DNA of 64,000 nucleotides from Balneolaceae bacterium. GTDB taxonomy: Bacteria > Bacteroidota > Rhodothermia > Balneolales > Balneolaceae. The DNA lies in assembly GCA_040880485.1 (NCBI GenBank), contig JBBDIJ010000002.1, forward strand, positions 51,518 to 115,517, read 5' to 3'. The position numbers and the translations under genes were made by a program. Position 1 is the stretch's first letter. Each line of letters opens with the position of its first letter. The notes beneath the pieces were generated by a model that ran no database searches, was not told the origin of the DNA, and saw only the letters and a list, made by a program, of their open reading frames with translations. Shown here in pieces: positions 7,846 to 50,537 of the stretch.

Positions 7846-9006
7846 TCAGAAGTTCAGCAGGACACTGAATCGCATCGTATTGGCGAGTGGGTGATCGTCT
7901 TCGAGGGCATAGATGTAGCTGAAGTCTACACCGAACATATTGTAGCGCAGGCCGGCACCCAGAGATATATATTCGCGATTCCCGTTCTCAGGATGTTCGT
8001 AGTAATATCCTGTGCGCAATGCGAACTGGTTGTTATACCAGTATTCGGCCCCGACGCCCACCATGAACTGCTGAAGGAGGCCCAATTCTACCATTTCACT
8101 TCCATTAAATCGTTCCAGACTGTTCCAGGAGCCGAAGAGTGCTCCAAAAGAGCTCATCGCTTCGTATGTCGTGTCGGTTCCGGTGACGGTCATCTCCGTT
8201 CTTGCCATCACCTTGGACAGATCTGTTGCCAGGGTGAGCCGGTTGATTCCATCCCTGTCCAGATCCGTTGTGTATGCACCGCCGATACGTAAAACAGTGG
8301 GGAGAGGATCCTTCTGGGCATTATCGGTGTATTGTACCCCGGGACCGATGTTGGAGATGCTGAGACCGGCCTTTAAATGTGCGTTTCGATTGAACATCAC
8401 GAATGCATCGGAGCGGTAAAGGCTGGCGAGATCCAGCCCAACCGTGGTTCCGGGATTGATTTTCTGCCCTCCCACATCTCCGTCGGCCAGGCTGCTGTAG
8501 ATGAAGCGCAGGCCCGTTCCAACTGCTAAATTTTCGTTCACTTCATATCCGTAGGAGAGGCCGGCTGCAAGTTCGTAACTGTTGAAGCGCCCTTGCTCGA
8601 TGCCCTGATTATCGGTCCGGATCTGCTCTCCCAGATTGAGAAAAGTGATGTGCCCGCCCACTGTTCCAATCCCTTCAATGTGGTACTTTCCGACCAGATA
8701 GTCATAAAAAAGGTCGGCATTAAAAGCCGGGAGCCAGCTTGCGTGTGTGATACTGATCTGATTGCCATGCTGCCAGGCAAGTCCAGCCGGATTCCAGAAG
8801 ATCGCATTTGCGTTGTCGGCAATGGCGACCCCCGTGCTTCCCATACCCGCAGCACGGGAATCGGGCTCAATCTGAAGGAAGGGGACCGCGGTGATACCCA
8901 CCTGGGCCTGAGCGGTAGTCCCCAGGATCGCAAGTGTGGCTGCGACCAGAAGGGTGGTGAGGATTCTGAATGGAGTTCTCATGACAAATCGGTCGTTGTT
9001 AGACAT
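7846..9006 (-). CDS. porV: PorV/PorQ-family type IX secretion outer-membrane beta-barrel protein
   Basis: Signal peptide, then AVPFLQIEPDSRAAGMGSTGVAIADNANAIFWNPAGLAW. This matches my memory of the conserved PorV/LptO N-terminal signature. Size is about 390 aa, with an aromatic C-terminal residue (LLNF). Confidence 0.65.
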   Translation of the reverse strand: MSNNDRFVMRTPFRILTTLLVAATLAILGTTAQAQVGITAVPFLQIEPDSRAAGMGSTGVAIADNANAIFWNPAGLAWQHGNQISITHASWLPAFNADLFYDYLVGKYHIEGIGTVGGHITFLNLGEQIRTDNQGIEQGRFNSYELAAGLSYGYEVNENLAVGTGLRFIYSSLADGDVGGQKINPGTTVGLDLASLYRSDAFVMFNRNAHLKAGLSISNIGPGVQYTDNAQKDPLPTVLRIGGAYTTDLDRDGINRLTLATDLSKVMARTEMTVTGTDTTYEAMSSFGALFGSWNSLERFNGSEMVELGLLQQFMVGVGAEYWYNNQFALRTGYYYEHPENGNREYISLGAGLRYNMFGVDFSYIYALEDDHPLANTMRFSVLLNF

Positions 9007-36462: not shown

Positions 36463-36897
36463 ATGAAAATTCAAAGAAATTACCGTTTTGCTGCTGCCGC
36501 CATTCTGGTTGCCATGCTTTCGCACCTCTCCGTGGTACAGGCACAAAACTCGGTACAGGCTGTCATGCAGGTATCGGTAGAAGTTGTGTCCGGTGCAACG
36601 ATCCTGAGCAGTTTTAACGAAGACATTTCTGAGCAACTCTATTCGAACGAATCCAGCCAGATCCATTTTGGAGAGTACACGATTACAGTACCGAAAGGGG
36701 CAGAGTTCGCCGCAACAACCGAGAGAGAGGTAAGAATGGATGGCCACGCGGGTTCATTCACTATTCAATCCAAAATGGCTGGCAAGAGCGGTACGGACGG
36801 CAGCGTTACCTTCGAAATCAGTGGCTCCGCCAACGGGTCAGATCTTGCAGCAGGTCATTACAGCGGACGTCAGATTGCCACAGTCGTCTATTATTGA
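36463..36897 (+). CDS. secreted DUF4402/spore-coat-U-like fimbrial-subunit-like protein (orphan, convergent)
   Basis: Signal peptide ending VQAQ. AGGAGG lies 8 nt before the ATG. The mature part begins with alternating hydrophobics (VQAVMQVSVEVV) and the protein ends GHYSGRQIATVVYY. That is the G-x-Y-x-G...Y C-terminal pattern I associate with DUF4402. Confidence 0.5.
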   Translation: MKIQRNYRFAAAAILVAMLSHLSVVQAQNSVQAVMQVSVEVVSGATILSSFNEDISEQLYSNESSQIHFGEYTITVPKGAEFAATTEREVRMDGHAGSFTIQSKMAGKSGTDGSVTFEISGSANGSDLAAGHYSGRQIATVVYY

Positions 36898-39551
36898 CCC
36901 GCGGGCTCTGACTGAGTTTCGGGTACCACACTAATCTCGAGCCCCTCTACAAAGTCGCCTTCGGGCAGGGCACGTACCTTAAATTGAAGCCGGTCGGGGT
37001 TCGAACGTGCATTCAGGAAGGTGAGCTGCGCAGGGTCGATGGCCAGTTCATACTCTCCCGGCGGAATCTCATAGGCGTAAAAACTGCCGTCGGAGTAGGT
37101 ACGTAACTCTTCAGAATAGGGTTCTGCCCCATCTCCGGCATCCGTCTGGTTCAAAAAGAGACGGACACCCGGCAGCGGGTTCCTTCCCTCCTCCGTGTAG
37201 ATAAAAATACGGCCGTCCACGACACCGGACATATAGAGCGGTACATCGATCTGTTTATACTGGTTGGGATCGGTCACCAGGGAGAATTGATCGAATTGCG
37301 GCACGTGCATAGGGTTCAGAAGTGCCCCCTTGTTCACCGACAAGTTATACTGCCGGTAGGGCTGAAGCTGTGTGATGTAGGTGACCCCGTCTTTCTGCGA
37401 GATTACACCGCCACCTCTCTCAATTCTTACGGCGTTTCCGGGCTGTAGCTCGTCGCCATCGTCGTAAGTACCGTTATTGTTGTTGTCCACGTACATGCGA
37501 ATGGCCAGGGCCGACCGGCCGACCTGCTGGCGGTTGGAGGTCAAAAACTGGCCGTTATTAGAGTCGTATCCCAATGAGCCCCGAAGGCTCTGTGTGAACA
37601 CGGTATTGCCCGCTGTGCTCCGAAGATTGGAGTTGGATCGAACGGAACTGAAGTCGAATGTGAGGCCAAACCGCAAGTAGGTAAAGCCTCCGATGAAGTT
37701 TCGTCCCAGGGCGGCCTGAAAACGGCCCCGGTCAAATAGGCTCCGCCCTGCATGGATCTCCAGGTCTTCCAGGCTGTTTCGCGCCGGAGCATAGGTCATC
37801 TGCCCTCTCAGGTAGAGGCCGCGTAAAACGGGATGAACCTCACGGCTTCTCGAAAAACTGTAGGAGCCCGATCCCTGTATCCGTGAGGAGGTAGTAGGGC
37901 TGATTCCGAATGCACCGGTCTGGGTATCGCGGTAACTCATACGGACATTCATCCGCCCCAATCTGCTGTTGAGCTCTATGCGATATCGCGTGGTATTCAC
38001 CGAAACCCGGTTGTCGTGCGTAAGGGTGAGTCTCAGGAAAAGCGGGAATGAATCGGAGAGTGGTATTGGAGTAAAGATAGCCGATTGGATTCGGCTTCGG
38101 CTCCGCCCCGTATTGTAGATACCTCCGAGCTCGGAGAAGTGTGTATAGTCCAGCTGAAAACTTGCCGAAGAGGGGTAGATAACACTACTGTTCAGGCGGT
38201 AAAATCGTGCAGGTGCGGCCTCTACTGTAACCAGATAGTTGGTCATCAGCCTGGCAGAGAGTGCCGTACTGATGGTGGGAAGTTCGTCATGATACGCACT
38301 GAAATACTCTACATTGGCCCGGCCGGTCAGCCAGTTGGTGAAACCCGTGGTCACGGTGCCGTGTCCCATCCAGCTTCTCAGAGAAGTTCCCGGAAGGGGG
38401 GTGTCCATGCGTCCTGCATTCAGAGAGTAGTTTACCTCGCCGGGTGGAAGAAAGTTGAACGGGATCTGCAAACGAGCCTGACGTTCACTCATCTGGCCTG
38501 AGGCCCCATAGGTGCGTACGGTATATTGTGAAATGCCGTATGTGAGAGGCACCCGAAACTGATAGTACCCGTCTTCACTGGTCATTTGATAGTCGATCAG
38601 AGTGTTGTTGCGATAGATTTCAATTTCGGAGGAGGGGGCGGCCGTTCCGGTAAAGAGGTAGTCGTCATAGATGTATCGGGGTTCAATCGGGTCATTGGTG
38701 ATCTGAATCCCGGTGTAGGCTGCCGGCAACAGCCCGTCGGAGGTGCTTTGGCCTGCAGTAATCCGGCTCACCCACTCATTATCCCGAATTCCATAACGCC
38801 AGCGCAGGTTGCTGGAGCGCAGTGTGGAGGCGCTTTGTGAAAAATTACCAAAGAGGCTACCCTGGAGGTCCCCTCCCATCACTTCCGATCCGATACTGCC
38901 TGAGAAGAGATAGCTTGAATTGGTTTGGGAGATATTAGCCGATAGACTGTAGTCCAGGAATCCCGTGTTGAACCGGTTTTGCTGCCGGTCGAATCGCAGT
39001 GGGTAGTACTCCATGTAGATCTGCTGCTGCCGTCGGGTCAGCTGTTCGCGGCGCAGCTCCCGGTTTCGTCGTGCAACCACTGGCATAGTATCGTCAGACT
39101 CAAGAATAAGGCCCAGTGTGTTGAAATCGGGGATAAAGCGGAGCCCGAACAGCTCTTCAAACAGGTCCGGGTGAAGGTAGTAGTCGAGCTGCTCTATCAG
39201 AAAGTCGTTAGCCTCGAACTCAATACGTACGTCGCCCAGTGTGGCGGTGCGGCTATTGAAGTCGATGCGGTAGCGCCCGCGGTCCAGATACTCTCCCGTG
39301 ATCTGCAACCGGCCGTTCCTCACTTCGTAATCGATCTGCAGCAAGCTGAACACCTCTGTGACCGGGATGTAGAACTCCTCGCCGGTATAGAAGGAAGAGA
39401 TGTAGCTGTTTATGACTCCTGCATGGCGGAAATGGAGGAAAACTTCATCGGTATCCGCTACCTGCGCAGAGGCGTTATTTACCGGTCCCCACGCGAGAAA
39501 GAGGATGGCAACAAAGAGAACCCGGTGTATGGTTCTGCGAGGGGCATTCAC
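36891..39551 (-). CDS. usher-like outer-membrane assembly protein with atypical C-terminal beta-sandwich domains
   Basis: GTG start overlaps the chaperone stop (GTGA), and a signal peptide is present. TGTAAPSSEIEIYRNNTLIDYQMTSEDGYYQFRVPLTYGISQYTVRTYGASGQMSERQARLQIPF resembles the conserved usher plug/middle signature. A long Ser/Arg/Tyr-rich alternating-strand region looks barrel-like. The C-terminus has DNNNNGTYDDGDE (SdrD-B/Cna-B-like) and a carboxypeptidase-regulatory-like segment (TYSDGSFYAYEIPPGEYEL). Confidence 0.5.
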   Translation of the reverse strand: MNAPRRTIHRVLFVAILFLAWGPVNNASAQVADTDEVFLHFRHAGVINSYISSFYTGEEFYIPVTEVFSLLQIDYEVRNGRLQITGEYLDRGRYRIDFNSRTATLGDVRIEFEANDFLIEQLDYYLHPDLFEELFGLRFIPDFNTLGLILESDDTMPVVARRNRELRREQLTRRQQQIYMEYYPLRFDRQQNRFNTGFLDYSLSANISQTNSSYLFSGSIGSEVMGGDLQGSLFGNFSQSASTLRSSNLRWRYGIRDNEWVSRITAGQSTSDGLLPAAYTGIQITNDPIEPRYIYDDYLFTGTAAPSSEIEIYRNNTLIDYQMTSEDGYYQFRVPLTYGISQYTVRTYGASGQMSERQARLQIPFNFLPPGEVNYSLNAGRMDTPLPGTSLRSWMGHGTVTTGFTNWLTGRANVEYFSAYHDELPTISTALSARLMTNYLVTVEAAPARFYRLNSSVIYPSSASFQLDYTHFSELGGIYNTGRSRSRIQSAIFTPIPLSDSFPLFLRLTLTHDNRVSVNTTRYRIELNSRLGRMNVRMSYRDTQTGAFGISPTTSSRIQGSGSYSFSRSREVHPVLRGLYLRGQMTYAPARNSLEDLEIHAGRSLFDRGRFQAALGRNFIGGFTYLRFGLTFDFSSVRSNSNLRSTAGNTVFTQSLRGSLGYDSNNGQFLTSNRQQVGRSALAIRMYVDNNNNGTYDDGDELQPGNAVRIERGGGVISQKDGVTYITQLQPYRQYNLSVNKGALLNPMHVPQFDQFSLVTDPNQYKQIDVPLYMSGVVDGRIFIYTEEGRNPLPGVRLFLNQTDAGDGAEPYSEELRTYSDGSFYAYEIPPGEYELAIDPAQLTFLNARSNPDRLQFKVRALPEGDFVEGLEISVVPETQSEPAGQ

Positions 39552-40378
39552 TCAATTTCAAACGTTGTCGAGTGTGAAACCGGCGGCATCTGAATCAGGT
39601 TTCTTGATGAGATATCGCTTCTGGACGATTCAAATGTCACTTCAGCTCTGTAGGTTCCGGCTCCCAGGTCAGTAGCCTGGAATTCGCTTCGGTGATGGTT
39701 GCGGAAATAGACGGAAGTGGAGCTGTTCTGCTCCTGAACAAGCTGGTCGTTGCTGTTGTAGATGCGCACCGTTGCACTCCCCAGAAAGGGGGCGGAACCG
39801 GTTCTCTCCACATCGGTAAATATCATCAGCTGGTCGTTGTTCGTTTCGGCGCTCACGCTGTGGATCTGAAGGCCGGTGTTCGGACTTCCGACTTCAAGTA
39901 GTACGGCTGTAATCTGGTCGACCTGAAATGCCACCCTTGCGGTGACCCCTTCCGTCTCTTCTCCGATCGGTGGGGTTACCATGTTGGAGGAGACTCTCAT
40001 CCGGGTCCAGTAGATACCATCCTCCAGGTTTCCGGGGGGACGTCCCACGAGGCGAACGGTCTGTCGTTGTCCGGGTTGCAGCACAAAGGTAGTGGGGAAG
40101 GCTCGGAGCCACTCCTGCAGGGAGTACCGCTCTTCTGCCTCCCCGTCGTCGTAGTTGAGGGTCACATTGCCGTTCTCGTCGGTTTGCGGATAGGCGAATT
40201 CGAAGGAGAGGCGCACCTCGACCGGCTCATTAGCCGGATTGGAGACATAGAAGGAGCCGACGCCGGAGCTCTTTTCGAGAAAAACGGCGGTAGGAGAAAT
40301 AGTGACCTGAGCCAGTGCAGTGCCTGCGGAGAGAAGAAGAAGCACTATTCCGGAGAGAAGTAGTCGTTTGGGTTTCAT
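39548..40378 (-). CDS. PapD-like periplasmic fimbrial chaperone
   Basis: Signal peptide ending ALAQ. VTISPTAVFL...FYVSNPANEPVEVRL...FPTTFVLQPGQRQTVRLV parallels the PapD N-domain pattern (IxPTRxI, LxVxN, PPxxxLxPGxxQxVR). The length fits two Ig-like domains. Confidence 0.5.
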   Translation of the reverse strand: MKPKRLLLSGIVLLLLSAGTALAQVTISPTAVFLEKSSGVGSFYVSNPANEPVEVRLSFEFAYPQTDENGNVTLNYDDGEAEERYSLQEWLRAFPTTFVLQPGQRQTVRLVGRPPGNLEDGIYWTRMRVSSNMVTPPIGEETEGVTARVAFQVDQITAVLLEVGSPNTGLQIHSVSAETNNDQLMIFTDVERTGSAPFLGSATVRIYNSNDQLVQEQNSSTSVYFRNHHRSEFQATDLGAGTYRAEVTFESSRSDISSRNLIQMPPVSHSTTFEIE

Positions 40379-40455
40379 GGGTTCGTTTCGTGAATGTCTT
40401 GCCCTGCCTGACGGTTGGAAAAGTCTGTAAAAAATGAGCTACCGCAATTATAATC

Positions 40456-40490
40456 AAAAAAAAGGCTCCATGAAATGAAGCCTTTTTTTT
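40456..40490 (-). terminator. hairpin terminator/attenuator between the major-subunit gene and the chaperone gene
   Basis: A8-GGCTCCA-TGAAA-TGAAGCC-T8: a 7-bp stem with one mismatch, flanked by an A8 and a T8 run. It lies in the 137-nt gap after the stop at 40516. Confidence 0.55.
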
Positions 40491-40515
40491 CTGATTTTCC
40501 GTACGTTCTATCGGT

Positions 40516-41031
40516 TTAGATACCAGTGTATTGAACCGTTATAGTCAGGTTCGACCCGTTCGTGTTGGTGGTGCTGTAATCTCCCGCTACAGTAGCTGCG
40601 TCCAATGCTCCACCAACCGTGAATACCAGAGGGCCAGTTGAAAGATCGAAATCGGTTCCAGCCGGCAGTACCTCGGTGTTGCCGCTATTTTCGAAGATGG
40701 AGGGAGTAAAGGTCAGGGTGTTGGTACCGTCACCATCGGCCAGTGTGGCTGTTCCGAAGGATATGGCGGCATTTGCATCTCCGGCAACTGTAAAAGCACC
40801 GGTCTGAGCGTTCTCCCCGACATTTTCATCGGGGTCGTCGCTCGCGTTGGCGTTCAGATAGGCGCCGCTATTCTGAGAGATGGTTCCGAAATTAACGTTT
40901 GTAATGTCGGAGAACGTAATAGCAGCCTGAACGTCTGCCGCTACCTCGATATCCTGAGTGGATTGAGCCTGTGCCTGTACAGTAAATACGATGGCGATTA
41001 CCAGGATCGGGGCAATGATTAATTTATTCAT
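40516..41031 (-). CDS. DUF4402-like secreted protein, candidate major filament subunit
   Basis: The ATG at 41031 gives MNKLIIAPILVIAIVFTVQAQAQ (signal peptide). The mature protein is Ala/Thr/Gly/Asn-rich with NVNFGTI, GAFTVAGD and a C-terminal GDYSTT...LTITVQYTGI. It has its own upstream region and downstream terminator. Confidence 0.6.
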   Translation of the reverse strand: MNKLIIAPILVIAIVFTVQAQAQSTQDIEVAADVQAAITFSDITNVNFGTISQNSGAYLNANASDDPDENVGENAQTGAFTVAGDANAAISFGTATLADGDGTNTLTFTPSIFENSGNTEVLPAGTDFDLSTGPLVFTVGGALDAATVAGDYSTTNTNGSNLTITVQYTGI

Positions 41032-41098
41032 GGTCTGTAGGATTGGTTGCGCGTTTAAAATCTTCAATGAAAGTTTATTGCTATTTTCGGTGCCGCCC

Positions 41099-41116
41099 AA
41101 GTTAGAAGCCTTTAAT
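41099..41116. promoter_or_regulatory. proximal copy of an 18-nt repeat AAGTTAGAAGCYTTTAAT upstream of the major-subunit gene
   Basis: AAGTTAGAAGCCTTTAAT, with one mismatch to the copy at 41209-41226. It contains the dyad-like TTAGAAGCCTTTAA. Confidence 0.4.
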
Positions 41117-41208
41117 TAACAAGCTCTAATGTCAGTAGCTTTCCGTTTTTAACCCATGCATTTTTTTCTGTAGATATAGAGATGATATCAGGTTCCCTGC
41201 CCAATCCA

Positions 41209-41226
41209 AAGTTAGAAGCTTTTAAT
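41209..41226. promoter_or_regulatory. distal copy of the 18-nt repeat; its minus-strand reading contains TAACTTTG
   Basis: AAGTTAGAAGCTTTTAAT, one substitution away from the perfect palindrome TTAGAAGCTTCTAA. The reverse complement of 41207-41214 is TAACTTTG, which matches the Bacteroidetes -7 consensus TAnnTTTG. Confidence 0.4.
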
Positions 41227-41261
41227 ATATACGATGCATGAGGGTGAGTAGAAAAGTGGAC

Positions 41262-41798
41262 TCAATCGTAGAGGATGTCGAGTACAATCTCTCCGGAGTA
41301 GGTTGCATTCGGGATATTGCCGACCTCTACTTCACCATAGAGATAGAGGAATACAGAGGACCAGTTCTGCCCCGGTGCGTTGGGAGGGGGCTGAATGGTA
41401 ACATCCTCCGTTGGGAGTGTGAAGGGGCGAGCCAGCCTGTAATCATTCACGCCGAAATCGACCAGAGCCGCCTCCATCCGGATAGGTATGGTGGCCGTAA
41501 TCGCCGGGTCGGTGGCGGTCAGCCTCTCGGGAAGGTTCAGCGTGAAGTGCAATCGCTGGCCTGTGAGGCCATTGATTCCGAATACGCCCATGCCCATATC
41601 TCCGAGTTCAACCCGGCTTATACCATTGCCAGCCACGACGCTCCCGAAGGAGAGGTTGCTCTCTACAGTGGCATTGACCTCCGAGGGGACCTCAATCTCT
41701 ACGGTCAGGAACTGGCCACTGAGTTGAGGGGGTACCCAGAGGGAGAGCAGTAGTGTGAGAATGGGTACCGGGAGGGTGTGTGTCACCTTCCTACACAT
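41262..41798 (-). CDS. DUF4402-like secreted protein (minor subunit candidate)
   Basis: Signal peptide ending LSGQ. SNLSFGSVV and C-terminal ATYSGEIVLDILYD. 8-nt overlap with the upstream gene. Confidence 0.5.
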   Translation of the reverse strand: MCRKVTHTLPVPILTLLLSLWVPPQLSGQFLTVEIEVPSEVNATVESNLSFGSVVAGNGISRVELGDMGMGVFGINGLTGQRLHFTLNLPERLTATDPAITATIPIRMEAALVDFGVNDYRLARPFTLPTEDVTIQPPPNAPGQNWSSVFLYLYGEVEVGNIPNATYSGEIVLDILYD

Positions 41799-42399
41799 CG
41801 GCCTGTTCGTAATAGATGGTTACCGTAATGGTGCCCTGGTAGTATCCGGCGTCCACATTTCCGACGTCGATGGTTCCGTAGAGGTAGAGGTATGCGTTCT
41901 CGTTCACCAGGCTCTGATCGAAATCAAGCGTTGGAGGGGGTGGGGGAGGCCCGGGAGCGTTTTGCAGCCGTCCCAGTATGGGGAATCGGGCGTTTGAAAA
42001 GTTGTTGACGACCGGAATGTACTGGGAGTCGCCCAGGTTGTTCTCTCCTCTGTTGGCATAAGCTGCCTGCAAGTTGAAAGGGATGCTGCAGGAGGGGTCT
42101 CCGCTGCAGGCGGCATTCCCTTCGAGAAGGAGCTCTCCGTCTGCCTCTATCTGAACAAAGGCATCCAGATAGTTTACACCTGTGACCATCAGGGCTTTCG
42201 CCTGGGGCAGTTCCACTTCATAGAGGCCGCCACCAGTTACAATGGGCCCTTCAAAGACCAGGTCATCCAGAGAGAGCTGGTCGAGTGTGATGGTATAGCT
42301 CTCATACTGGCTGAAAGAGAGCTCCTGCCCGAATCCGCTCTTTGCCACAAAAACAAGCATCAGAGAAGCGGCAAGGATATGTTTGCAGAAGTGCCTCAT
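41791..42399 (-). CDS. DUF4402-like secreted protein with Cys pair and poly-proline insert
   Basis: Signal peptide ending GFGQ. C-terminal GYYQGTITVTIYYEQADV, plus CSGDPSC and APGPPPPPPT inserts. The track start at 42402 is TTG. I use the adjacent ATG at 42399, which shares one nt with the upstream stop. Confidence 0.45.
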   Translation of the reverse strand: MRHFCKHILAASLMLVFVAKSGFGQELSFSQYESYTITLDQLSLDDLVFEGPIVTGGGLYEVELPQAKALMVTGVNYLDAFVQIEADGELLLEGNAACSGDPSCSIPFNLQAAYANRGENNLGDSQYIPVVNNFSNARFPILGRLQNAPGPPPPPPTLDFDQSLVNENAYLYLYGTIDVGNVDAGYYQGTITVTIYYEQADV

Positions 42400-42977
42400 C
42401 AATTGTACTCCACTTCCAATGTAAACTCCCCTTCATAGGCTCCGGTGGTGGCGTCTTCCAGATTGACGAGCCCTCCGATCCAGAGGTAGAATTGGCCTTC
42501 TTCGTTAAACTGATACTCCCGGCTGTCCGGCTCCAAAACCTCCGCCGTGTCCTGTTCGTCGAGATAATTTCCAGCTACATCGAACCGGATGCCAAGAAGG
42601 CCGGTGCGCTCGATGTTTACCATTTCCCGATTGCGCAGCCAGGTGACCTGAAACGAGGAACCAGGTGATCCCTGGGCCACCATCTTTCCCGCCCTGGGGC
42701 TCAGAACCGGGTCTATATTCAGCTCCCTCTGATCTGCTTGCAATTCACTGAAATCCATACCCTGTAGCGTGACCACTTCAAGCGACTGCAATACGCTGGC
42801 ACTCACCTGAATGGTAATGATCTCCTGCTTTCTGTCCTCGCTCTGGGCGGCCAGTTTTGAGGGAAACAGAAAGGCCGGAACAAGACAAAGAAACCATGCC
42901 ACAGGAAGCAAATTATGCAAACTCACTTGTATCCCGACGGAGAGAAGAACCGGCTTTATTTTGTTGCGAAAATTCAT
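42399..42977 (-). CDS. DUF4402-like secreted protein (minor subunit candidate)
   Basis: C-terminus GAYEGEFTLEVEYN matches the GxYxGxFxVxVxYN ending I recall for DUF4402 proteins. Long N-terminal signal/anchor ending KLAAQ. The track start at 42992 is TTG, so I prefer the ATG at 42977. Confidence 0.5.
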   Translation of the reverse strand: MNFRNKIKPVLLSVGIQVSLHNLLPVAWFLCLVPAFLFPSKLAAQSEDRKQEIITIQVSASVLQSLEVVTLQGMDFSELQADQRELNIDPVLSPRAGKMVAQGSPGSSFQVTWLRNREMVNIERTGLLGIRFDVAGNYLDEQDTAEVLEPDSREYQFNEEGQFYLWIGGLVNLEDATTGAYEGEFTLEVEYN

Positions 42978-43058
42978 GCCCAAAGATCGCAAGAAGCAGA
43001 CGCGTCCCCTAATTAAGCTTTTTTAACACGAACCCTGATCGGCTACAGTGAAGCCACC

Positions 43059-44111
43059 CTACTCATAGATACTTGTGGCCGTGTATTTGCGGCCGGCGCC
43101 GTTTACGTTGGCTGATGCTTTTTTTGCATACTCTATGGCCTGGCAGTCGTACTGAATGTTCACGTTACCGCTAATACCGACATCCATAGTTCCTATATCA
43201 TTTGTATTACCGATCAGCATCGAACCGTTAATACTGGGGGTCCCCTTGGCAGAGAGGGAGAAGGCGTTTTCGAAGATCACCAGGCCGTTGAATGTAAAGT
43301 TCCCTCCCAGATCCAGCTCACCTTCCATCTCCAGCTCTCCGTTGGTCCGGATTACCAGGATACCATATCCCTCACTGGCACCACCCTTTAGTTGGGTAGA
43401 GGAGGTGACAAAGAAGACACCGGGATTATCGGCAGAGCCAAGAGGTTCATTCACGTTACCTCCGAGAAACTGTGCCCCAGGTTGCTCCTCCAGCCTTTGA
43501 ATCATTTCTGTGACATCATCGAAGTTGAGAGCAGGGTCGACCTCGATTGCGGGATCTCCATCAATCTGGCTGGCATATCCCTCCACTTTATCTTCGCCTT
43601 CGGCGCTCTGTACCGCTACACCGGGCCCATCTTCACAAGTCATGCTGGCGTCATTGCCGCTAATGGATGCAGAAGCTCCGTCTATGCCGAAGGTAAAATC
43701 GTCGGTAGCGATACCGATCGCCCCATTGAAATCCGGTAAGAAGTGCAACTCCTGAAGTTGATAGGTGACGTTGATCGACTGTTCCTGGTCGCCCACGGTA
43801 CCTGTAGCACGGAGGCGGTAGGTTACGTCATCTTCGTCGGCCGGGTCGGCGCAGTAGATAAACTGCACGATGGCGGTTCCCTCATCCAGCGCGTAGGTCA
43901 GGCTGCCGTCCTGGGTGCACACTGTCTCGTCCTGCATCATCTGGTGAATCGTGAGCTCCAGGGCAGAGTGTGCGATATTAGAGGATTGGGTGCGTTCAGC
44001 GTATCCGGTACTGTGCCGGGAAAGGCCCAGAACCGTGTCCTGAAGGCCCGATTGTGTGATTCCGACGGAGAGAAGCACGCCGGATACGATAATGAGCATG
44101 GCACGTCCCAT
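43059..44111 (-). CDS. PilX-N-like pseudopilin-like protein with beta-helix-like C-terminal part
   Basis: N-terminus MGRAMLIIVSGVLLSVGITQSG followed by NIAHSALELTIHQM resembles the PilX N-terminal domain. The C-terminal GYGILVIRTNGELEMEGELDLGGNFTFNGLVIFENAFSLSAKGTPSINGSMLIG resembles the repetitive end of PilX-like proteins. Confidence 0.45.
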   Translation of the reverse strand: MGRAMLIIVSGVLLSVGITQSGLQDTVLGLSRHSTGYAERTQSSNIAHSALELTIHQMMQDETVCTQDGSLTYALDEGTAIVQFIYCADPADEDDVTYRLRATGTVGDQEQSINVTYQLQELHFLPDFNGAIGIATDDFTFGIDGASASISGNDASMTCEDGPGVAVQSAEGEDKVEGYASQIDGDPAIEVDPALNFDDVTEMIQRLEEQPGAQFLGGNVNEPLGSADNPGVFFVTSSTQLKGGASEGYGILVIRTNGELEMEGELDLGGNFTFNGLVIFENAFSLSAKGTPSINGSMLIGNTNDIGTMDVGISGNVNIQYDCQAIEYAKKASANVNGAGRKYTATSIYE

Positions 44112-44171
44112 ATCAGCTCCATTTCATTTTCAGGTTATAGGTCATTTCATTCTTCACGGCTGGAACCGGTT

Positions 44172-44825
44172 TTAGAGGTCCAGGTTGGGCGGTACAATGG
44201 TTTTTCGCCATTGGGAGGCGGGAAACCGCACCTCCCCGCCCGGCATACCCACCCCTTCCCGGGGCTGGGTCTCTACAAATATTTCGATCCGTCGTATTTC
44301 ACTCATGTCAGATGCGGCTATCGGGAACGTCATTGGAGTATTGCTGCCAGCAGTATAGTACTGCAGTTCAAAACGTGTAACCCCAATTCCGATGTTGGTA
44401 ACTTCGTCCGTGGTGGCCCCGGTCACAATGCTGCCACCCGGGGTGTCAATCACCATATTACTGGAGACGATTCGCTGGAGAATTCGGTGATCCGGGTTTC
44501 CGCTTCCGGGAACCATCTGGTCGGTGTAACCCCACATGACAATCGGAGGATTTCCGGCAAGGACCGGATCGGCTTCTACGTTGGCTTCAAATGCGATGGT
44601 GTCGGGTGTGGCCAGAAAAATTGGAGAAGAGATTGCTCCATCGATATCATAACCGGCTTTCTGGAAGTCGAATAGAAGCATCTCGTAAACCGCTTCTATA
44701 TGGGTTTTGGACATCTCATGAAGTGCAAGGTCGGAGGAGTGCTGGCCCAGACGCAGATTGAGTGTGGCGATCATCAGGATCAGCACACCTGAAATGATAA
44801 AGCTCATTGAGAGTCCGAGGTTCAT
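44172..44825 (-). CDS. PilW/GspJ-like pseudopilin-like protein
   Basis: Single N-terminal hydrophobic helix (MSFIISGVLILMIATLNL). LLFDFQKAGYD and VTRFELQYYTAG...IRRIEIFVETQ resemble minor-pilin beta-sheet signatures. There is no GFTLIE motif. Confidence 0.35.
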   Translation of the reverse strand: MNLGLSMSFIISGVLILMIATLNLRLGQHSSDLALHEMSKTHIEAVYEMLLFDFQKAGYDIDGAISSPIFLATPDTIAFEANVEADPVLAGNPPIVMWGYTDQMVPGSGNPDHRILQRIVSSNMVIDTPGGSIVTGATTDEVTNIGIGVTRFELQYYTAGSNTPMTFPIAASDMSEIRRIEIFVETQPREGVGMPGGEVRFPASQWRKTIVPPNLDL

Positions 44826-44837
44826 ACCTTTACTTCC

Positions 44838-45356
44838 TCAGTCGTGATTGTAGGTTCGTACATAGGCCACCCGAACAGGATTGGTCAGAGAGGGGTTGGT
44901 TACCGTGACCACCATTCGTTTATGCCGGGTACGTATAGTGGTGGGAGTGGCCGGATCGTCCTCCGTAACATAGTGTACCTCTGCTGAAATCTCATACGGG
45001 CCCAGGTTGGTATCCATCACCTCTTCCCAGCCGTGGTACCCTTCATATGAAGCTATATCGCTGCGGTTGCCTGCCGTCGTATGGGGGAAATTGGGGGCGG
45101 CAAACTCTTCGGGCATCTGAATCGGAATGTGTCCATCTACTGTAACACTGTCGAAGGGACGCAGGAGGGCCTCCTCAATCAGATCCTGGCCCAGAGTGAC
45201 CGCCAGCATCTCCACTTCCGACGCCACCTGCTGTTGGGTGTTGGAGAGCATATAGCGATTGGTGGATAGAAGAATGATCGAGAAAATCACCATCGCCCCC
45301 ACCACCTGTATCACTTCTGCGTATCCGTTCATATCATTTCCGTTATGAGCTGTCAT
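44838..45356 (-). CDS. PilV-like pseudopilin-like protein
   Basis: N-terminus MTAHNGNDMNG-YAEVIQVVGAMVIFSIILL: a Gly followed by a hydrophobic helix, with Glu at +3 rather than the canonical +5. Small globular C-terminal part. Confidence 0.35.
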   Translation of the reverse strand: MTAHNGNDMNGYAEVIQVVGAMVIFSIILLSTNRYMLSNTQQQVASEVEMLAVTLGQDLIEEALLRPFDSVTVDGHIPIQMPEEFAAPNFPHTTAGNRSDIASYEGYHGWEEVMDTNLGPYEISAEVHYVTEDDPATPTTIRTRHKRMVVTVTNPSLTNPVRVAYVRTYNHD

Positions 45357-45509: not shown

Positions 45510-48500
45510 CTATTCAATACGAGTCATCTTTCGGTTTAATACCCCTTCCGAAGTCACCAGGCGAACAAAATAGACTCCGCTGGCGATCGACCCTCCGTTC
45601 CACGGCAGTTCATAGTATCCCGCCTCCTGCCGTCCGCGGAGCACGGTCTGAACCCTGCGTCCCAGAATATCGTAGATCTCGATGCGGACATCGGTTTCCA
45701 CCGGCAGGCCATAACGAAGTGTGGTTGATCCGGCAAAAGGGTTTGGATAGTTGCTCTGTAACACCAGGTGATCAGGTATTCCGGCCGCGTCGGCTCCAGG
45801 GTCTATCACCATGACAAAACGGGCCTCACTACGCAGGCCGGTAATCTTGCGAACCAGACTGAATGAACCGGGACGATTCACGTGCGGTTTGGCAGCCCCT
45901 GCCGATGAGAGCGTAAAATCGTACCAGCTGTTCTGCCTCATATCCACTTCGCCTCCGGTATTGCGGTCAATTAGCCGGAGCGACCACTCCTGCGGGAGAT
46001 TTTCAAGTTCCGGCCAGGAGAGGGTGGCTTCTCCCTCCATCCAGTTGCCGTTACGAACCCCACCCACCTGAATCGGAATTTCTATGGTTCGGCCAAACCG
46101 GCGCGGCAAGTTGCGGATCGCCAGTTCGGTGCCGTCATCCAGAAGAGAGTAGACCTCTACCCAGGTATCGGTTCCAAACGGGAGGAGGCGGTAGGCATCC
46201 TGGTCGTCCAGCTTGTTGCTGCCCCCCTCCGTGAAGGAGAAGTGCGTGGATTGGGAGAGTCCGTCTGATGTGAGCTCGAGTGCAATCACGGGTGGACTCT
46301 CCGGCTCTGCGGATTCGCGATAGAAAGTTCCGCCTGTGGTTTTAGAGACTTTGCGAACCCGGAGGGAAGGAGCCCCGTTTCCGTTTGCCTTGACCCAGAA
46401 TCCCTGGAAAGGGGCAATTTTACCCGACCCGAGCGAGCCAGCCGACCCGTTCCATGTGAGATATTGGCCGCTTGTTTCGTCCCACACGTAGATCGTGTTG
46501 TTCATGTTCGTTTTTTGCCAGGTTCCGTCGTCCCAGTCGATGGCAGCAGCGAAGGGGTTGGCCACCAGGTTCCAGCCCGTGTCGGCCACGGCAGTGTACG
46601 TAACCGGAAGGGCGACCTCGGTTCCGTTTCCGTCATGCTCCTCTCCGGTCACCTCCAGTGTTTGAGGCAGCGGGTCGTTGTAGCGATTGTCTTCCGGGAT
46701 ATCCCCGAAAAAATATACGAAGTAGCCGCGACCTGGTGTGACCGTGTCTGAGGCATCGGCAGGTGCCCTCCAGCGCTGATTGTCGGTCCCCGGGTGAGAC
46801 TCCTGATACCAGAGTACGTTCGGTTGCAGTGTGTCGCTCTCCGTATCGTAGAGGTCGGCACCGGGATAGCCCTGTGTGAGGGTTCCACCCAGAAGGTCAG
46901 AGACGCTGGATATGATCGGGCTGCCGAGCAGTCTCCAACCCCGATTTCCTGATATCTCCCTCTGCATCCGGAGGTTTTCCGTAGTGCCTGATTTGTTGTT
47001 GGCCACCAGGCTATAGCCAGATGGGATATCCAGTAGCCCATTCTGCAGTGTGAGTGTGCCGTTCACCACCAGGTCGTTGTTAAATGTGACCGATACACCG
47101 TTGTTGATAGTGAGGTTATGGATCGGGCTGAACCCGCTCACTTCCTGCGCAGCGGTTCCGTTGAACTCAACATCGGTGTCGGTGAGCAGAATGTTTGAAG
47201 TGGTTGCATCGATGCTGCCTCCAAATCGAAAGGTAGATCCGTTTCCGGATAGGTTACCGTCAATAGTGATCTGGTCAATCATGACCAGTTCGGATCCCGT
47301 TTCATTATTCAACGTCTGTCCGGTGTTGACGCTCAGGTTCAATGAGGCCTCCAGATAACCCTCGTTCACAACATCACTCTGAATAAAAATCTGATCTCCT
47401 ACAAGGTTGGTCGAGTCGGAAATCGTCAGACCTCCTGCCCGCTCCAGATAGATATCAGAGGTACCAGCTGTAATGTTTTTGATATTAATCGGGCCAAATA
47501 GCTCAACTGTCGCTTCGTCGGCAATTAGCGTCCCGCTTCCTGAAATCTCCTGGTGGATCGTCAAAAGACGTCCGGAGTTGAGATTGATGGTTGCATCCTG
47601 GTGGATCACCAGAAAGTCGATCTCGACATCCAGCTCATCAATGAGCGGAAAGTTTTGACTTTCAGCCGGATTGGTCGGAATGATGACTACCTGGCCTGTA
47701 GTTGGAACTCCAAGTTCCCAGTTTCCTGCCTGCTCCCAGATTCGACTATTTGCGGGGTTCCCTCCGGCGCTGGTCCATGTGTTGAACTGTGTAACGCTGA
47801 TCACTGCGTCGTTGGTGATGGCACTGCTGTTGACGGTTCCAGTAACGGTCACCGACTCCATTGCCATACCAGCGGTCAGGGTGGCGGTGTAGATCCCACC
47901 CCCCTGATTGGTAACGGCAGAGAGTGAGCTGTTGCTGCCACCGTCGTCCAGGGTCACGGTGTCGTCTCCCTGGGTTCGAAGGTTTCCAAAGGCGTCCCGA
48001 ACTTCAACGGTGATGGTGGTGTTGTCTGTCCCGTCGTTCTGGAGGAAGGAGGTGGCTGGGGTGATGGTGGTTGTGGCGGTACTGGCCGGACCGGCGACGA
48101 CGGTGAACAATTCACTGGTTCCGCTCTCCGAAAAGCCCGATCGTCTTGCGGAGATCGAAAAATTGCCGGCGGAAGAGAGTGTAACACTGTGGGTGTTCAG
48201 AACACCCTCTGTGAAGGTAGCAGTGGTGCCGCTGCCGGACGAGATGGTTCCGCTTGAAGTGATGACCGTGGTAGCTCCGCTACCATCAAACGACTCCACA
48301 ATGTTGTCAAAAGCGTCGAGAGCAGTGATCCGTATCGGAAAGATCACACCTGCGGTCTGCTCTCCAATGGTCCCGCCTGTTTCCGCCTCCACCAGAAAGG
48401 TGGTGAGGGCGCCAAAGGTAAAGTTGACCAGCACATTTCCGGAAGTGATTGTCTGGCTGTTTACACTGGCGCCAATCTCGAAATTTCCTACCTCACCGGG

Positions 48501-50537
48501 AGCGGTAATTGTGGCACTCCAGGTACCGTTGCCTGTATAGACAGGGGTGCTGATAGTGAGCTCAGCGGCCAGGTCAAAGATCTGGACCAGGTTCTGGTCG
48601 TCCTCTATCGGGTTGCCAAATTCGTCTCTTAGCTGAACCGTCACTTCTGCCTCGCTGGAGCCGTCGGCAATCAGAGTGTCTGTGTCGATAGTGATAATAG
48701 AGCTATCGGGATCGGCCGCCGCGGCCGAAACGGTGAATTCATTGGATGTGCCGGTCTGAGGCCCGTCGTTGTTCACAACGAAAACCGTGTGTGTGCCGCT
48801 CTCGATGAGGGCCACCGGATGGGTCGCAATTCCGTCGGTAAAAGGGATGGTGGTATTGGTGGCGCCGGACAGGGTGCCGGTAGTGGAGAGGGTGACTTCT
48901 CCGTTAAATTCATCAATCAGGTTGTTGTTGCCGTCCACCGCACGAATCGAGAGGTCGAATGTCTCGCCAGCTGTTTTGGAGGAAATGATCTCCTCATTTC
49001 CATTCACCAGCTCCCAAATGTTAAACCGGGAGAGTTTACCACTCTCCACGACTATAAATGGAATACTTGTCGTACTCTGCAAGTCAGTACTCACCGCTTC
49101 CAGCCGATACTCCAACGTTGAGTCGGGAGGCTGGTCCACTGCGATGTTGTCGAACACCGACCGCCCCTCGATGTCGGTGTCTACCGAGGTGGTGCTCAGG
49201 TGGAAGCTACCGTTACTGTGATTGATCCGAATCAGGTTCAGCTCCACCGTGCGTCCTGCCTCCTGGACCAGGTTTTCCCAGGCGTCCACCAGGCGGACAA
49301 TGGGCGGTGGTTCAATGGTGCTCTGCCGGTTGGCAGATCGGGGTAGGGTGGTAAAGATCAGGCTGTCGGCTGCGGCCGGCACAATGGTAACAGGATCTGA
49401 AGTGATGGAGAGAAGGCCGGGTGCGGTGAATCGGAGGTCTATCTCGCTCGCCAGGGTGTGGAACAGGTCATTGAAATCGTACTGGGCCGAGCTGTTTTCC
49501 AGGCTGGTGGTTCCCTGCAAGGTTCCACTGCCGGATAGCCGGGCTGCGGTTACGGTTCGGGCAACCCCGTCGGTTACGCGGTTGCCAAAGTTGTCATGGA
49601 CCTCTACCCGGAAGAGGTCCATCACCTCGCCGGCATCATATTGCGGGCTGGCGCCCAGGTCGGAGGGTTGATCGGTGAGCACGAGCCGGGTCGCTTCAGC
49701 CGGTACAACTTCGATCTCACCGGAAGGGAAGGGCGTGAGGCCGGTGATCTGAGCGCGGATGTTGGCCGTTCCTGTTCGTGCACCAATCATTGTGGCGGCC
49801 TCCCCATCCCCGGCGGCTACCAGGTCGGCCTGTTGAATCTCTCCGGTAATATTGGTCAGATCCCAGGTGGCCGATCCGGGCGATTTAAAGTTGTTGAACT
49901 GGTCCCGCACCACAGCATAGACGTCCAGGGAGTTTCCGGCTGGCAACTCCTGGAATGCGACGAGGGAGCCACTACCGTCGGGGGCTGATTCCACCCGTAC
50001 ACCCGCGTCGGCACCGGCCACTTTGGTGACCTGTGCAAAGCTGGTGGAACCCACCGCAATGGCAGGACCCGATGCGGTGACATTGAAGTCTCCCAGATGG
50101 GTACCGCTGGTCGGCCGAAGCCGGAAATTGGAAAAGGTGGCCTGGCCGGCTCTTCTTGGCGGGTCATTGCTCGTTGACGTTACCTGAAAGGTGATGGTGG
50201 AAGCGGTCCGGCTCACATACTGGATGGCGAGTTTCGTGTTGCCGTTGAAGCCGGGCGCCACATTGATCGCAACGGCAGGGGCCGTTCCGCCGGTATCCCA
50301 TTCAAATCCACTGGGCGCGTTAAAACGGATTTCACCCAGCACGACCTGTCCCGCCGAGGTTTCGGTTATCACAGGGCCGTTCATCAGGGTGTTGTATGTA
50401 CCACCGACGTTATCTGCACTGATGATCACGGGGGTGGCCGGCTGCACCTGTTGTGCATCGGACACAGCGGCTCCTGCAAGCATGCCGAGAGTCAGCATCA
50501 GAAGGGTGGAAAGAGCGGTTGAAATGCGGAGGTTCAT
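45510..50537 (-). CDS. giant (1675 aa) Ig-repeat surface adhesin, T9SS cargo
   Basis: Signal peptide MNLRISTALSTLLMLTLGMLAGAAVSDAQ. Seven roughly evenly spaced D-x-(F/W/N)-x-N motifs (VRDQFNNF, VHDNFGNR, VDAWENL, VDGNNNL, LRDEFGNP, LDAFDNI, VRDAFGNL) are typical of bacterial Ig-like repeats. The middle is Asn/Gly/Thr/Ile-rich and beta-helix-like. The C-terminus is a T9SS sorting domain. Confidence 0.8.
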   Translation of the reverse strand: MNLRISTALSTLLMLTLGMLAGAAVSDAQQVQPATPVIISADNVGGTYNTLMNGPVITETSAGQVVLGEIRFNAPSGFEWDTGGTAPAVAINVAPGFNGNTKLAIQYVSRTASTITFQVTSTSNDPPRRAGQATFSNFRLRPTSGTHLGDFNVTASGPAIAVGSTSFAQVTKVAGADAGVRVESAPDGSGSLVAFQELPAGNSLDVYAVVRDQFNNFKSPGSATWDLTNITGEIQQADLVAAGDGEAATMIGARTGTANIRAQITGLTPFPSGEIEVVPAEATRLVLTDQPSDLGASPQYDAGEVMDLFRVEVHDNFGNRVTDGVARTVTAARLSGSGTLQGTTSLENSSAQYDFNDLFHTLASEIDLRFTAPGLLSITSDPVTIVPAAADSLIFTTLPRSANRQSTIEPPPIVRLVDAWENLVQEAGRTVELNLIRINHSNGSFHLSTTSVDTDIEGRSVFDNIAVDQPPDSTLEYRLEAVSTDLQSTTSIPFIVVESGKLSRFNIWELVNGNEEIISSKTAGETFDLSIRAVDGNNNLIDEFNGEVTLSTTGTLSGATNTTIPFTDGIATHPVALIESGTHTVFVVNNDGPQTGTSNEFTVSAAAADPDSSIITIDTDTLIADGSSEAEVTVQLRDEFGNPIEDDQNLVQIFDLAAELTISTPVYTGNGTWSATITAPGEVGNFEIGASVNSQTITSGNVLVNFTFGALTTFLVEAETGGTIGEQTAGVIFPIRITALDAFDNIVESFDGSGATTVITSSGTISSGSGTTATFTEGVLNTHSVTLSSAGNFSISARRSGFSESGTSELFTVVAGPASTATTTITPATSFLQNDGTDNTTITVEVRDAFGNLRTQGDDTVTLDDGGSNSSLSAVTNQGGGIYTATLTAGMAMESVTVTGTVNSSAITNDAVISVTQFNTWTSAGGNPANSRIWEQAGNWELGVPTTGQVVIIPTNPAESQNFPLIDELDVEIDFLVIHQDATINLNSGRLLTIHQEISGSGTLIADEATVELFGPINIKNITAGTSDIYLERAGGLTISDSTNLVGDQIFIQSDVVNEGYLEASLNLSVNTGQTLNNETGSELVMIDQITIDGNLSGNGSTFRFGGSIDATTSNILLTDTDVEFNGTAAQEVSGFSPIHNLTINNGVSVTFNNDLVVNGTLTLQNGLLDIPSGYSLVANNKSGTTENLRMQREISGNRGWRLLGSPIISSVSDLLGGTLTQGYPGADLYDTESDTLQPNVLWYQESHPGTDNQRWRAPADASDTVTPGRGYFVYFFGDIPEDNRYNDPLPQTLEVTGEEHDGNGTEVALPVTYTAVADTGWNLVANPFAAAIDWDDGTWQKTNMNNTIYVWDETSGQYLTWNGSAGSLGSGKIAPFQGFWVKANGNGAPSLRVRKVSKTTGGTFYRESAEPESPPVIALELTSDGLSQSTHFSFTEGGSNKLDDQDAYRLLPFGTDTWVEVYSLLDDGTELAIRNLPRRFGRTIEIPIQVGGVRNGNWMEGEATLSWPELENLPQEWSLRLIDRNTGGEVDMRQNSWYDFTLSSAGAAKPHVNRPGSFSLVRKITGLRSEARFVMVIDPGADAAGIPDHLVLQSNYPNPFAGSTTLRYGLPVETDVRIEIYDILGRRVQTVLRGRQEAGYYELPWNGGSIASGVYFVRLVTSEGVLNRKMTRIE
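45513..45767 (-). other. T9SS C-terminal sorting domain (type A) of the giant adhesin
   Basis: The last 85 aa are LVLQSNYPNPFAGSTTLRYGLP...IEIYDILGRRV...GYYELPWNG...SGVYFVRLVTSEGVLNRKMTRIE. They carry the NYPNPF, IYDxxGR and GVYFVRL hallmarks. Confidence 0.7.

Follow-up and report, generated by a model that had tools for sequence, protein, structure and literature searches.

The question raised by this locus is whether three consecutive small membrane proteins that carry no pilin leader, and that lie in a stretch of DNA without pilus machinery, can be subunits of a type IV pilus. The stretch (the window; 64,000 nucleotides of a Balneolaceae bacterium, contig JBBDIJ010000002.1) encodes these proteins, A, B and C, together called the trio, at the following positions:

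44838..45332, minus strand: gene A, 164 amino acids counted from M9, in the GspI/PilV position, N-terminus MNGYAEVIQ
44838-45356, minus strand: longest frame of gene A, 172 amino acids
44172..44825, minus strand: gene B, 217 amino acids, minor pilin with a predicted GspJ/PilW-type fold
43059..44111, minus strand: gene C, 350 amino acids, predicted PilX/GspK/ComZ-type minor pilin

An earlier note, made from the letters of the window alone, had described the three as PilV/PilW/PilX-like and had offered three explanations: a complex that tips or primes a type IV filament whose genes lie elsewhere, relics recruited to a neighboring adhesin or fiber, or an unrelated family that looks pilin-like by eye. 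The first is the best supported of the three, because homologous trios sit between the PilB and PilT genes in other bacteria of the Fibrobacterota-Chlorobiota-Bacteroidota (FCB) group. We put at roughly 0.6 the probability that A-B-C are an unlinked paralogous minor-pilin set, the counterparts of GspI/J/K and PilV/W/X, of a leaderless FCB filament system similar to the type 4a pilus (T4aP-like), and that they act as tip or priming complex with the machine encoded elsewhere in the genome.

That each of the three consecutive proteins opens with one hydrophobic helix was confirmed from the open reading frames (ORFs), which are called with spacers of 12 nt between A and B and 60 nt between B and C. 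The sizes previously given (172, 217 and 350 amino acids) hold for the longest ORFs, with the correction that A rather starts at M9, giving 164 amino acids, as annotated by NCBI and in agreement with the conserved start of 93 homologues. The strings quoted in the earlier note all occur: LLFDFQKAGYD and VTRFELQYY belong to B, GYGILVI...FNGLVIF to C and G-YAEVIQ to A. The reported lack of PilD, PilB/T, PilC, PilM-Q and GspD/E/F genes was borne out as well. Pfam scans of most large ORFs, together with precomputed Pfam matches on called genes, revealed no type IV machinery (PilB/C/D/T/M-Q, Gsp) in the 64-kb window, and phmmer searches with the E. coli GspC-O proteins against the six-frame window and about 85 relative loci, nearly all from Balneolaceae (1.42 Mb), found nothing at E<=10.

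In direct comparison with Pfam, NCBIfam and PDB sequences, A, B and C gave only noise, whether searched as single proteins, as family profiles or member by member. At E<=1, neither B nor its 96 homologues matched a Pfam family, T2SSJ and PilW included, and C had no direct match to PF14341 (PilX_N). This silence, even by profile, favors the idea of an unrelated family of single-pass membrane proteins that resemble pilins by eye only. Predicted structures argue otherwise. The AlphaFold2 model of B (56-sequence alignment; predicted local distance difference test, pLDDT, 87.2; predicted template modeling score, pTM, 0.75) has a helix from residue 3 to 55 followed by beta domains. Its top 16 Foldseek matches in PDB are to EpsJ, to XcpW, both by itself and as part of XcpVW/XcpVWX complexes, and to one Thermus pilin, TTHA1219, with probabilities of 0.96-1.0 and template modeling (TM) scores of 0.47-0.58 per target. 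According to this model, B has the two-domain GspJ-type fold. The AlphaFold2 model of C (56 sequences; pLDDT 86.4) consists of a helix (3-60), a four-stranded sheet (70-121), a beta-solenoid (approximately 130-320), a short helix and a closing strand, so that the solenoid precedes the last strand. Its best PDB match is ComZ of Thermus (6qvi; E 3.3e-4, probability 0.92), and the next matches are solenoids of ice-binding proteins. The structure comparison proposed in the earlier note, run for B and C, has therefore returned pilin or pseudopilin folds, and both models display the pilin lollipop of a long N-terminal helix and an antiparallel sheet.

Profile searches lead to the same relatives. A profile of the C family, run against 1.84 billion representative proteins, retrieved 735 proteins at E<=1e-3. 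Three of them (P0303, P0311 and P0318, found at E ~1e-15 to 1e-16) pass the PilX_N model with 29-39 bits against a cut-off of 25.5, and P0311 bears the database name 'pilus assembly PilX N-terminal domain-containing protein'. Since C misses PF14341 and its profile relatives pass it, the homology of C to PilX_N is transitive, not direct. The 164-residue protein A has an N-terminal hydrophobic helix and adjoins B upstream in every locus; gene order, size, helix and an invariant acidic residue suggest that it is the subunit in the GspI/PilV position. A, B and C are very divergent relatives of type IV pilus tip subunits, B and C by their models and A presumably, by its position, size and invariant acidic residue, which upholds the PilV/PilW/PilX-like description. 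Having failed both the class III signal and the T2SSJ, PilW and PilX_N Pfam thresholds, the trio is not filed as an ordinary member of those families. The modeled structures of B and C and the profile homology of C, along with homologues in T4aP-like clusters, refute the idea of an unrelated family, to which we give almost no credence.

The clusters in question were reached through intermediate relatives of C. Several of these also start with MGR, and three that lie on long contigs sit in complete T4aP-like gene clusters. In locus L092, from a metagenome-assembled genome (MAG) of Ignavibacteriota, the cluster opens with a 133-residue protein starting MGQQQLLLIILGVIIVGIAIAVG, followed by a T2SSF protein (PilC) and a T2SSE protein of 596 amino acids (PilB). 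Then come proteins of 180, 204 and 350 amino acids (the trio), a second T2SSE protein of 432 amino acids (PilT-like), a PilM/N-like protein of 526 amino acids, a protein of 294 amino acids, a secretin and a lipoprotein with Big_1 and Invasin_D3 domains. L093 and L094 share this gene order, and the MAG of L094 is named Balneolales bacterium. Among the names that NCBI gives to cluster neighbors are 'type 4a pilus biogenesis protein PilO' and, for the ATPase, 'PilT/PilU family type 4a pilus ATPase'. The machine-linked A, B and C proteins each match about 100 Balneolaceae ORFs, with E-values down to 1e-37, 1e-39 and 1e-44, respectively, which by sequence identifies them as true homologues of A, B and C of the window. 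Components of the Tad type (TadE/F/G) were considered for the trio and dismissed, as there is no Pfam match and the machine that accompanies the homologous trios is of the T4aP-like kind.

Scanning metagenomes with the PilT-like protein added 80 loci, so that 83 machine loci were available together with L092-L094. Their conserved order is a small protein that we call MAJ (one to five copies), PilC, PilB, the trio where present, PilT, PilMN, PilO and secretin. In loci with a complete PilB-PilT interval, the trio was found in 20/53 intervals and was absent from the interval in 33/53, which indicates that an unlinked trio, the situation in Balneolaceae, is common and indeed more frequent than a linked one. 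C starts with MG[RK] in the machine loci, and A has an acidic residue or a glutamine at position 5-6. Flanking genes of the machine loci without a trio shared no orthologues with Balneolaceae loci in BLAST searches.

Some machine loci contain additional genes. In 18 of them, a gene for a protein of about 167 amino acids lies between PilB and PilT; its counterpart in L093, a locus that contains the trio as well, matches cNMP_binding. In L132:8050-9375 and L135:8076-9443 the trio has the inverted orientation, and between it and PilT lies the gene for a protein of some 450 amino acids with a Por_Secre_tail domain (E 4e-9), so that cargo genes of the type IX secretion system (T9SS) also occur inside a pilus-like cluster. 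The gene after the secretin (L133, L141, L147, L158, L167 and L092) encodes a lipoprotein with lipobox, of 485-1401 amino acids, with Big_1 and Invasin_D3 but no T9SS domain. The repeat types of these lipoproteins are those of a 1675-residue adhesin-like protein encoded next to the trio in the window. The pairing with Big_1/Invasin_D3 proteins, in Balneolaceae as well as beside the machine, may parallel the pairing of minor pilins with PilY1.

MAJ occupies the place where a major subunit would be expected. These proteins (L092:4569-4970, L093:2585-3055 and approximately 50 ORFs in L095-L172) are 120-170 amino acids long, have a hydrophobic helix of about 20 residues, and are encoded directly upstream of PilC-PilB, often in 2-5 tandem copies. 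They start with MG[QSTM]QQL in 50/50 cases, and with MGQQQL in 48/50. There is neither a leader nor a Glu5 (in its place is a glutamine). No prepilin peptidase was found in the 83 machine loci (L092-L174, 10 kb around the clusters) with E. coli GspO as phmmer query at E<=1e-3, although the E. coli queries GspD, GspE and GspF did find homologues there. In the literature searched, neither type IV pilins without a leader nor the MGQQQL motif turned out to have been described.

The earlier note had pointed out that A, B and C lack the canonical class III signal, and the starts of their homologues (about 95 for A, about 95 for B and 55 for C) strengthen this point. The A proteins begin with M-x-G-Y-x-[ED]-V-[LI]-Q (in the alignment, M1 in 94/94, G3 in 65/94 and Y4 in 87/94), and position 6 of the precursor is acidic (E or D) in all 94 aligned sequences; upon removal of Met1 it becomes position 5. 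A', from a second tandem set A'-B'-C' present in many Balneolaceae (L005:11334-13744; for example also L012, L014, L016 and L021), starts with M-[NS]-[DS]-[YF]-[SA]-[DE] and has no glycine there. The aligned B proteins begin with M-N-x-G-[LI]-x-T-S-[YF]-I-I, with N2 in 87/96 and G4 in 80/96, and contain no acidic residue in this start. The C proteins begin with M-G-R-A-M-L-I-I, with M-G-R in 55/55 aligned homologues. In none of the three families do the frames provide a short charged leader ending in Gly(-1), and the 1.4 Mb of trio loci contain no canonical motif of the G-F-T-L-I-E type.

Since ORFs were called from the first start codon after a stop, both in the window and in the relative loci, the frames are maximal and B and C cannot be extended upstream. 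Mis-called start codons were dismissed for this reason. A signal peptide cleaved by the Sec pathway was dismissed also, as the helix continues unbroken to approximately residue 55-60 in the models of B and C and is homologous to PilX_N. Because all three families have conserved direct starts, the missing leader is no annotation artefact, and the aligned frames indicate that absence of the class III leader is a conserved property of the A, B and C families.

The proteins could still be ordinary prepilins if the leader were ultra-short (M, Mx or MNx), the early glycine (G3 of A, G4 of B and G2 of C) were G(-1), and the peptidase were encoded elsewhere. The PilX_N relatives of C carry ordinary leaders (DRRG/VALV, QEAG/FALI and NERG/MALV, with the leader before the slash), and G2 of C aligns with their G(-1). 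Moreover, neither C nor the MGQQQ proteins show any variation at G2. In MSH loci, as in the clusters described here, the peptidase gene is absent, and the MSH pilins borrow PilD from another locus, but unlike the trio they have leaders (PMC6668835). Conservation of the glycine is poor, however, in A (65/94, with D or S in A') and in B (80/96), cleavage would leave arginine as residue 1 of C and glutamate at +3 in A, and a peptidase homologue lies next to PilB-PilC in 0/83 clusters. To our knowledge, leaders so short and uncharged have not been described. We regard ultra-short leaders as improbable.

For the leaderless tip or priming complex, the folds, homologies, gene neighborhoods and leaderless frames described above suggest a sequence of steps by homology with known systems. 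A, B and C would be inserted into the inner membrane via their N-terminal helices, with the MGR of C in the cytoplasm as a positive-inside signal. Two cysteines of C (C159 and C323) are invariant, and this fits a periplasmic location of C. The three proteins would then form a heterotrimer similar to GspI-J-K or PilV-W-X, in which the solenoid of C forms the top and the acidic residue 6 that never varies in A plays the part of the pilin Glu5. This trimer would prime or tip a filament of MGQQQLLL subunits polymerized by PilB and PilC. In Balneolaceae the trio would have been multiplied, each copy being co-encoded with a different Big_1/Invasin_D3 adhesin. That the organism of the window possesses such a machine is suggested by the example from Balneolales, by how strongly the trio is conserved and by the frequency of unlinked trios.

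Several observations weigh against this interpretation. Around some 80 trio loci of Balneolaceae, PilB/C/T/M-Q and secretin genes are absent to a distance of 10 kb, and the sole Balneolales example of the machine, L094, is not assigned to Balneolaceae. MAJ is a putative pilin, so called for its position, size and N-terminal helix, and it is not detected by E. coli GspG. The N-terminal helices of B and C are free of acidic residues, and these two proteins appear to lack an equivalent of Glu5. Comparison of the A and B profiles with the single E. coli proteins GspI and GspJ by hhalign was not significant (probability 0.6% for B and GspJ), and the match of C to ComZ has a global TM score of only 0.22 at a sequence identity of about 11%. 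Finally, T9SS-sorted adhesins should leave the cell by a route other than the pilus secretin, a point that the tip-complex model leaves unexplained.

The trio itself is a stable unit in Balneolaceae. C has 302 relatives in a collection of 5.8 billion proteins, and among the 120 listed, every named organism is a Balneola, Gracilimonas, Halalkalibaculum or Balneolaceae MAG. A scan of GTDB species genomes yielded 80 loci, nearly all from Balneolaceae, with three labeled only Rhodothermia or Bacteroidota bacterium. An iterative hidden Markov model search of the relative loci, seeded from the window, identified 97 A, 99 B and 111 C ORFs in the order A-B-C, and the recurrence of this order in about 80 loci of different Balneolaceae species is not due to chance. 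Several assemblies have two or three separate trio loci, and L016 has three trio sets in a row. The C' proteins are longer than C (430-510 amino acids) and match DUF4900 weakly. In a rough neighbor-joining tree, canonical PilX_N proteins are outside, the machine-linked MGR proteins come next, and the Balneolaceae C' and C clades are inside. Some C homologues have no A and B immediately before them: that of L004:10001-11086 lies among PAS, histidine-kinase and response-regulator genes, and in L090:10001-11080 the order is C-A-B-C.

The machinery could not be found near the Balneolaceae trios by other means either. Machine proteins of L092 and L094, used as phmmer queries against the Balneolaceae loci, did not detect it there, and searches near these trios for the GspE-type Walker A motif and the PilD motif were empty. 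Clustering of neighboring ORFs revealed no further conserved partner of the trio. The literature search on pili in Balneolaceae turned up nothing relevant.

What does surround the trio in the window is the following set of genes:

45510..50537, minus strand: adhesin-like protein, 1675 amino acids, with Big_1 (weak), Invasin_D3 and Por_Secre_tail (weak) in the precomputed Pfam matches
42399-42992, 41791-42402, 41262-41798 and 40516-41100, minus strand: four DUF4402-like secreted proteins (weak DUF4402, E 0.075)
39548-40378, minus strand: PapD-like protein (weak PapD_N, E 0.0067)
36891-39551, minus strand: outer-membrane-type protein, 886 amino acids, homologues weakly Usher/CarboxypepD_reg
36463-36897, plus strand: fifth DUF4402-like gene, recognized from its translation
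7846-9006, minus strand: PorV-family T9SS protein (E 1e-32), 35 kb from the trio

The trio is part of ten co-directional genes (adhesin, A, B, C, four DUF4402-like, PapD-like and the 886-residue protein), which are bordered by oppositely oriented dTDP-rhamnose genes and by pyruvate-dehydrogenase genes. In Pfam scans and precomputed Pfam matches, the rest of the window contains housekeeping genes and PorV. The presence of PorV fits export of the adhesin by the T9SS of this organism.

In the relative loci, three layouts recur. In the first, which corresponds to the window, an adhesin of 1500-2700 amino acids is followed by A-B-C, optionally A'-B'-C', four DUF4402-like proteins, a PapD-like protein and a large protein, and one further DUF4402-like gene is on the other strand. 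In the second, A-B-C stands alone among housekeeping genes, and in the third it is followed by a protein of about 590 amino acids with Por_Secre_tail. Adhesin-like ORFs occur before or after the trio in most Balneolaceae loci.

These layouts can be read in another way, akin to the recruited relics of the earlier note. The dispersed Balneolaceae trios may be uncoupled from any pilus machine and form periplasmic complexes, anchored in the inner membrane, that serve the T9SS adhesin or a chaperone-usher-like fiber, perhaps as anchor, assembly scaffold or periplasmic spacer. About half of the Balneolaceae loci place the trio between a T9SS-type adhesin and DUF4402/PapD/usher-like genes, all in one direction; other trios precede the 590-residue Por_Secre_tail protein; about 80 loci have no machine gene nearby; and PorV is encoded in the window. 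Conversely, many trios stand alone among housekeeping genes without adhesin or chaperone-usher-like genes, homologous trios are integral to T4aP-like clusters elsewhere, and the priming of a filament would fit both the acidic residue that is invariant in A and the strict stoichiometry of three genes. We also know of no T9SS or chaperone-usher pathway that requires pilin-like proteins in the inner membrane. Uncoupled trios appear to us unlikely, if the main rival to the tip complex.

The tip-complex interpretation can be compared with filament systems that are better understood. With GspI-GspJ-GspK (XcpV-W-X, EpsI-J-K) the trio shares three consecutive genes in the order small, medium, large, an N-terminal hydrophobic helix in each product, the GspJ fold of B, and a largest member without Glu5 and with an extra domain on top. 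Glu5 is absent in tip subunits of the GspK/PilX type. In contrast to those proteins, the trio has neither a leader nor a sequence match to T2SSI, T2SSJ or T2SSK, and B is without the Glu5 present in GspJ. GspK has an alpha-helical insert as its extra domain, C a beta-solenoid. The machine associated with the trio also differs from type II secretion systems (T2SS) by its PilT-like ATPase and PilMNO, which make it T4aP-like.

The gene organization has a close parallel in the T4aP minor-pilin sets that are paired with PilY1. Like the trio, these sets are encoded as units, often unlinked to pilBCD/pilMNOPQ, with several paralogous sets per genome and a large adhesin gene adjoining each set, and C is distantly homologous to PilX_N. 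Unlike them, the trio comprises three genes, among which a FimU/GspH-like or PilE-like member was not seen; it lacks the class III signal, and its partners are Big_1/Invasin_D3 proteins with a T9SS domain instead of PilY1. For C alone, the nearest precedent is the insertion of a beta-solenoid similar to ice-binding proteins before the last strand, an architecture that a recent description gives for ComZ and for all PilX proteins of cyanobacteria; these solenoid pilins have been proposed to reside at the pilus tip. C resembles them in a pilin fold interrupted by a large solenoid before the last strand, and differs in starting with MGR where they are described as having a type III signal peptide that PilD removes. 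Of the machines described from the same superphylum, the nearest is another divergent type IV filament system with barely recognizable minor pilins, the Cytophaga hutchinsonii 'T2SS' (CHU_3191-3201), whose grouping is with T4aP. This system has an A24 peptidase (CHU_3197) and a major pseudopilin of the T2SSG family, and a PilT-like ATPase is not among the components listed in the source paper. The clusters of the trio type differ from it by having no nearby peptidase and an MGQQQLLL-type protein instead.

Current descriptions have every type IV pilin synthesized as a prepilin whose type III signal peptide is removed by PilD, and in surveys the peptidase accompanies the ATPase and the platform protein in nearly every phylum covered. 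The general statement that every pilin starts out as a prepilin is contradicted by three families of minor pilins and one putative major subunit, in whose frames (roughly 50-95 sequences for each family) a leader has no place. If these proteins really assemble, leader and peptidase would be dispensable, and their roles in membrane insertion, timing of assembly and N-methylation would become testable. Quite apart from this, three families of Balneolaceae 'hypothetical proteins' gain a structural assignment.

A wider version of this interpretation would extend to the machine and to secretion. A widespread T4aP-like machine of the FCB group, found in Ignavibacteriota, Balneolales and many uncultured relatives, might build filaments from leaderless pilins (starts MGQQQLLL, MxGYxE, MNxG and MGR) and need no prepilin peptidase, and Balneolaceae might have multiplied the tip set and coupled every copy to a T9SS adhesin. 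This is offered tentatively, as a possibility that we would not yet bet on. If true, type IX secretion and type IV filaments would be connected; the adhesin pairing in any case raises the question whether a pilus tip complex and T9SS cargo meet.

The genes downstream of the trio (36463..42992) look like a very divergent chaperone-usher-like fiber locus that is conserved across Balneolaceae, and this module is syntenic in about 35 Balneolaceae loci. It is given here as context for the trio, with no joint working of the two implied. The chaperone-usher-like genes have no PDB sequence match. Homologues of the PapD-like protein match PapD_N below threshold in 12/29 cases, and among the 23 homologues of the 886-residue protein, 2 match Usher (best 4.4e-6) and 17 CarboxypepD_reg. 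The latter homologues also match TcfC weakly, and often SPOR. The C-terminus of all five DUF4402-like proteins is Y-x-G-x-[IFL]-T-[LV]-x-[VI]-x-Y or something close to it. Directly 3' of the DUF4402-like gene at 40516-41100 lies a strong terminator-like hairpin (40456-40490, minus strand) with a 16-pair stem followed by a T run; hairpin terminators of this kind are often found after genes for major fiber subunits.

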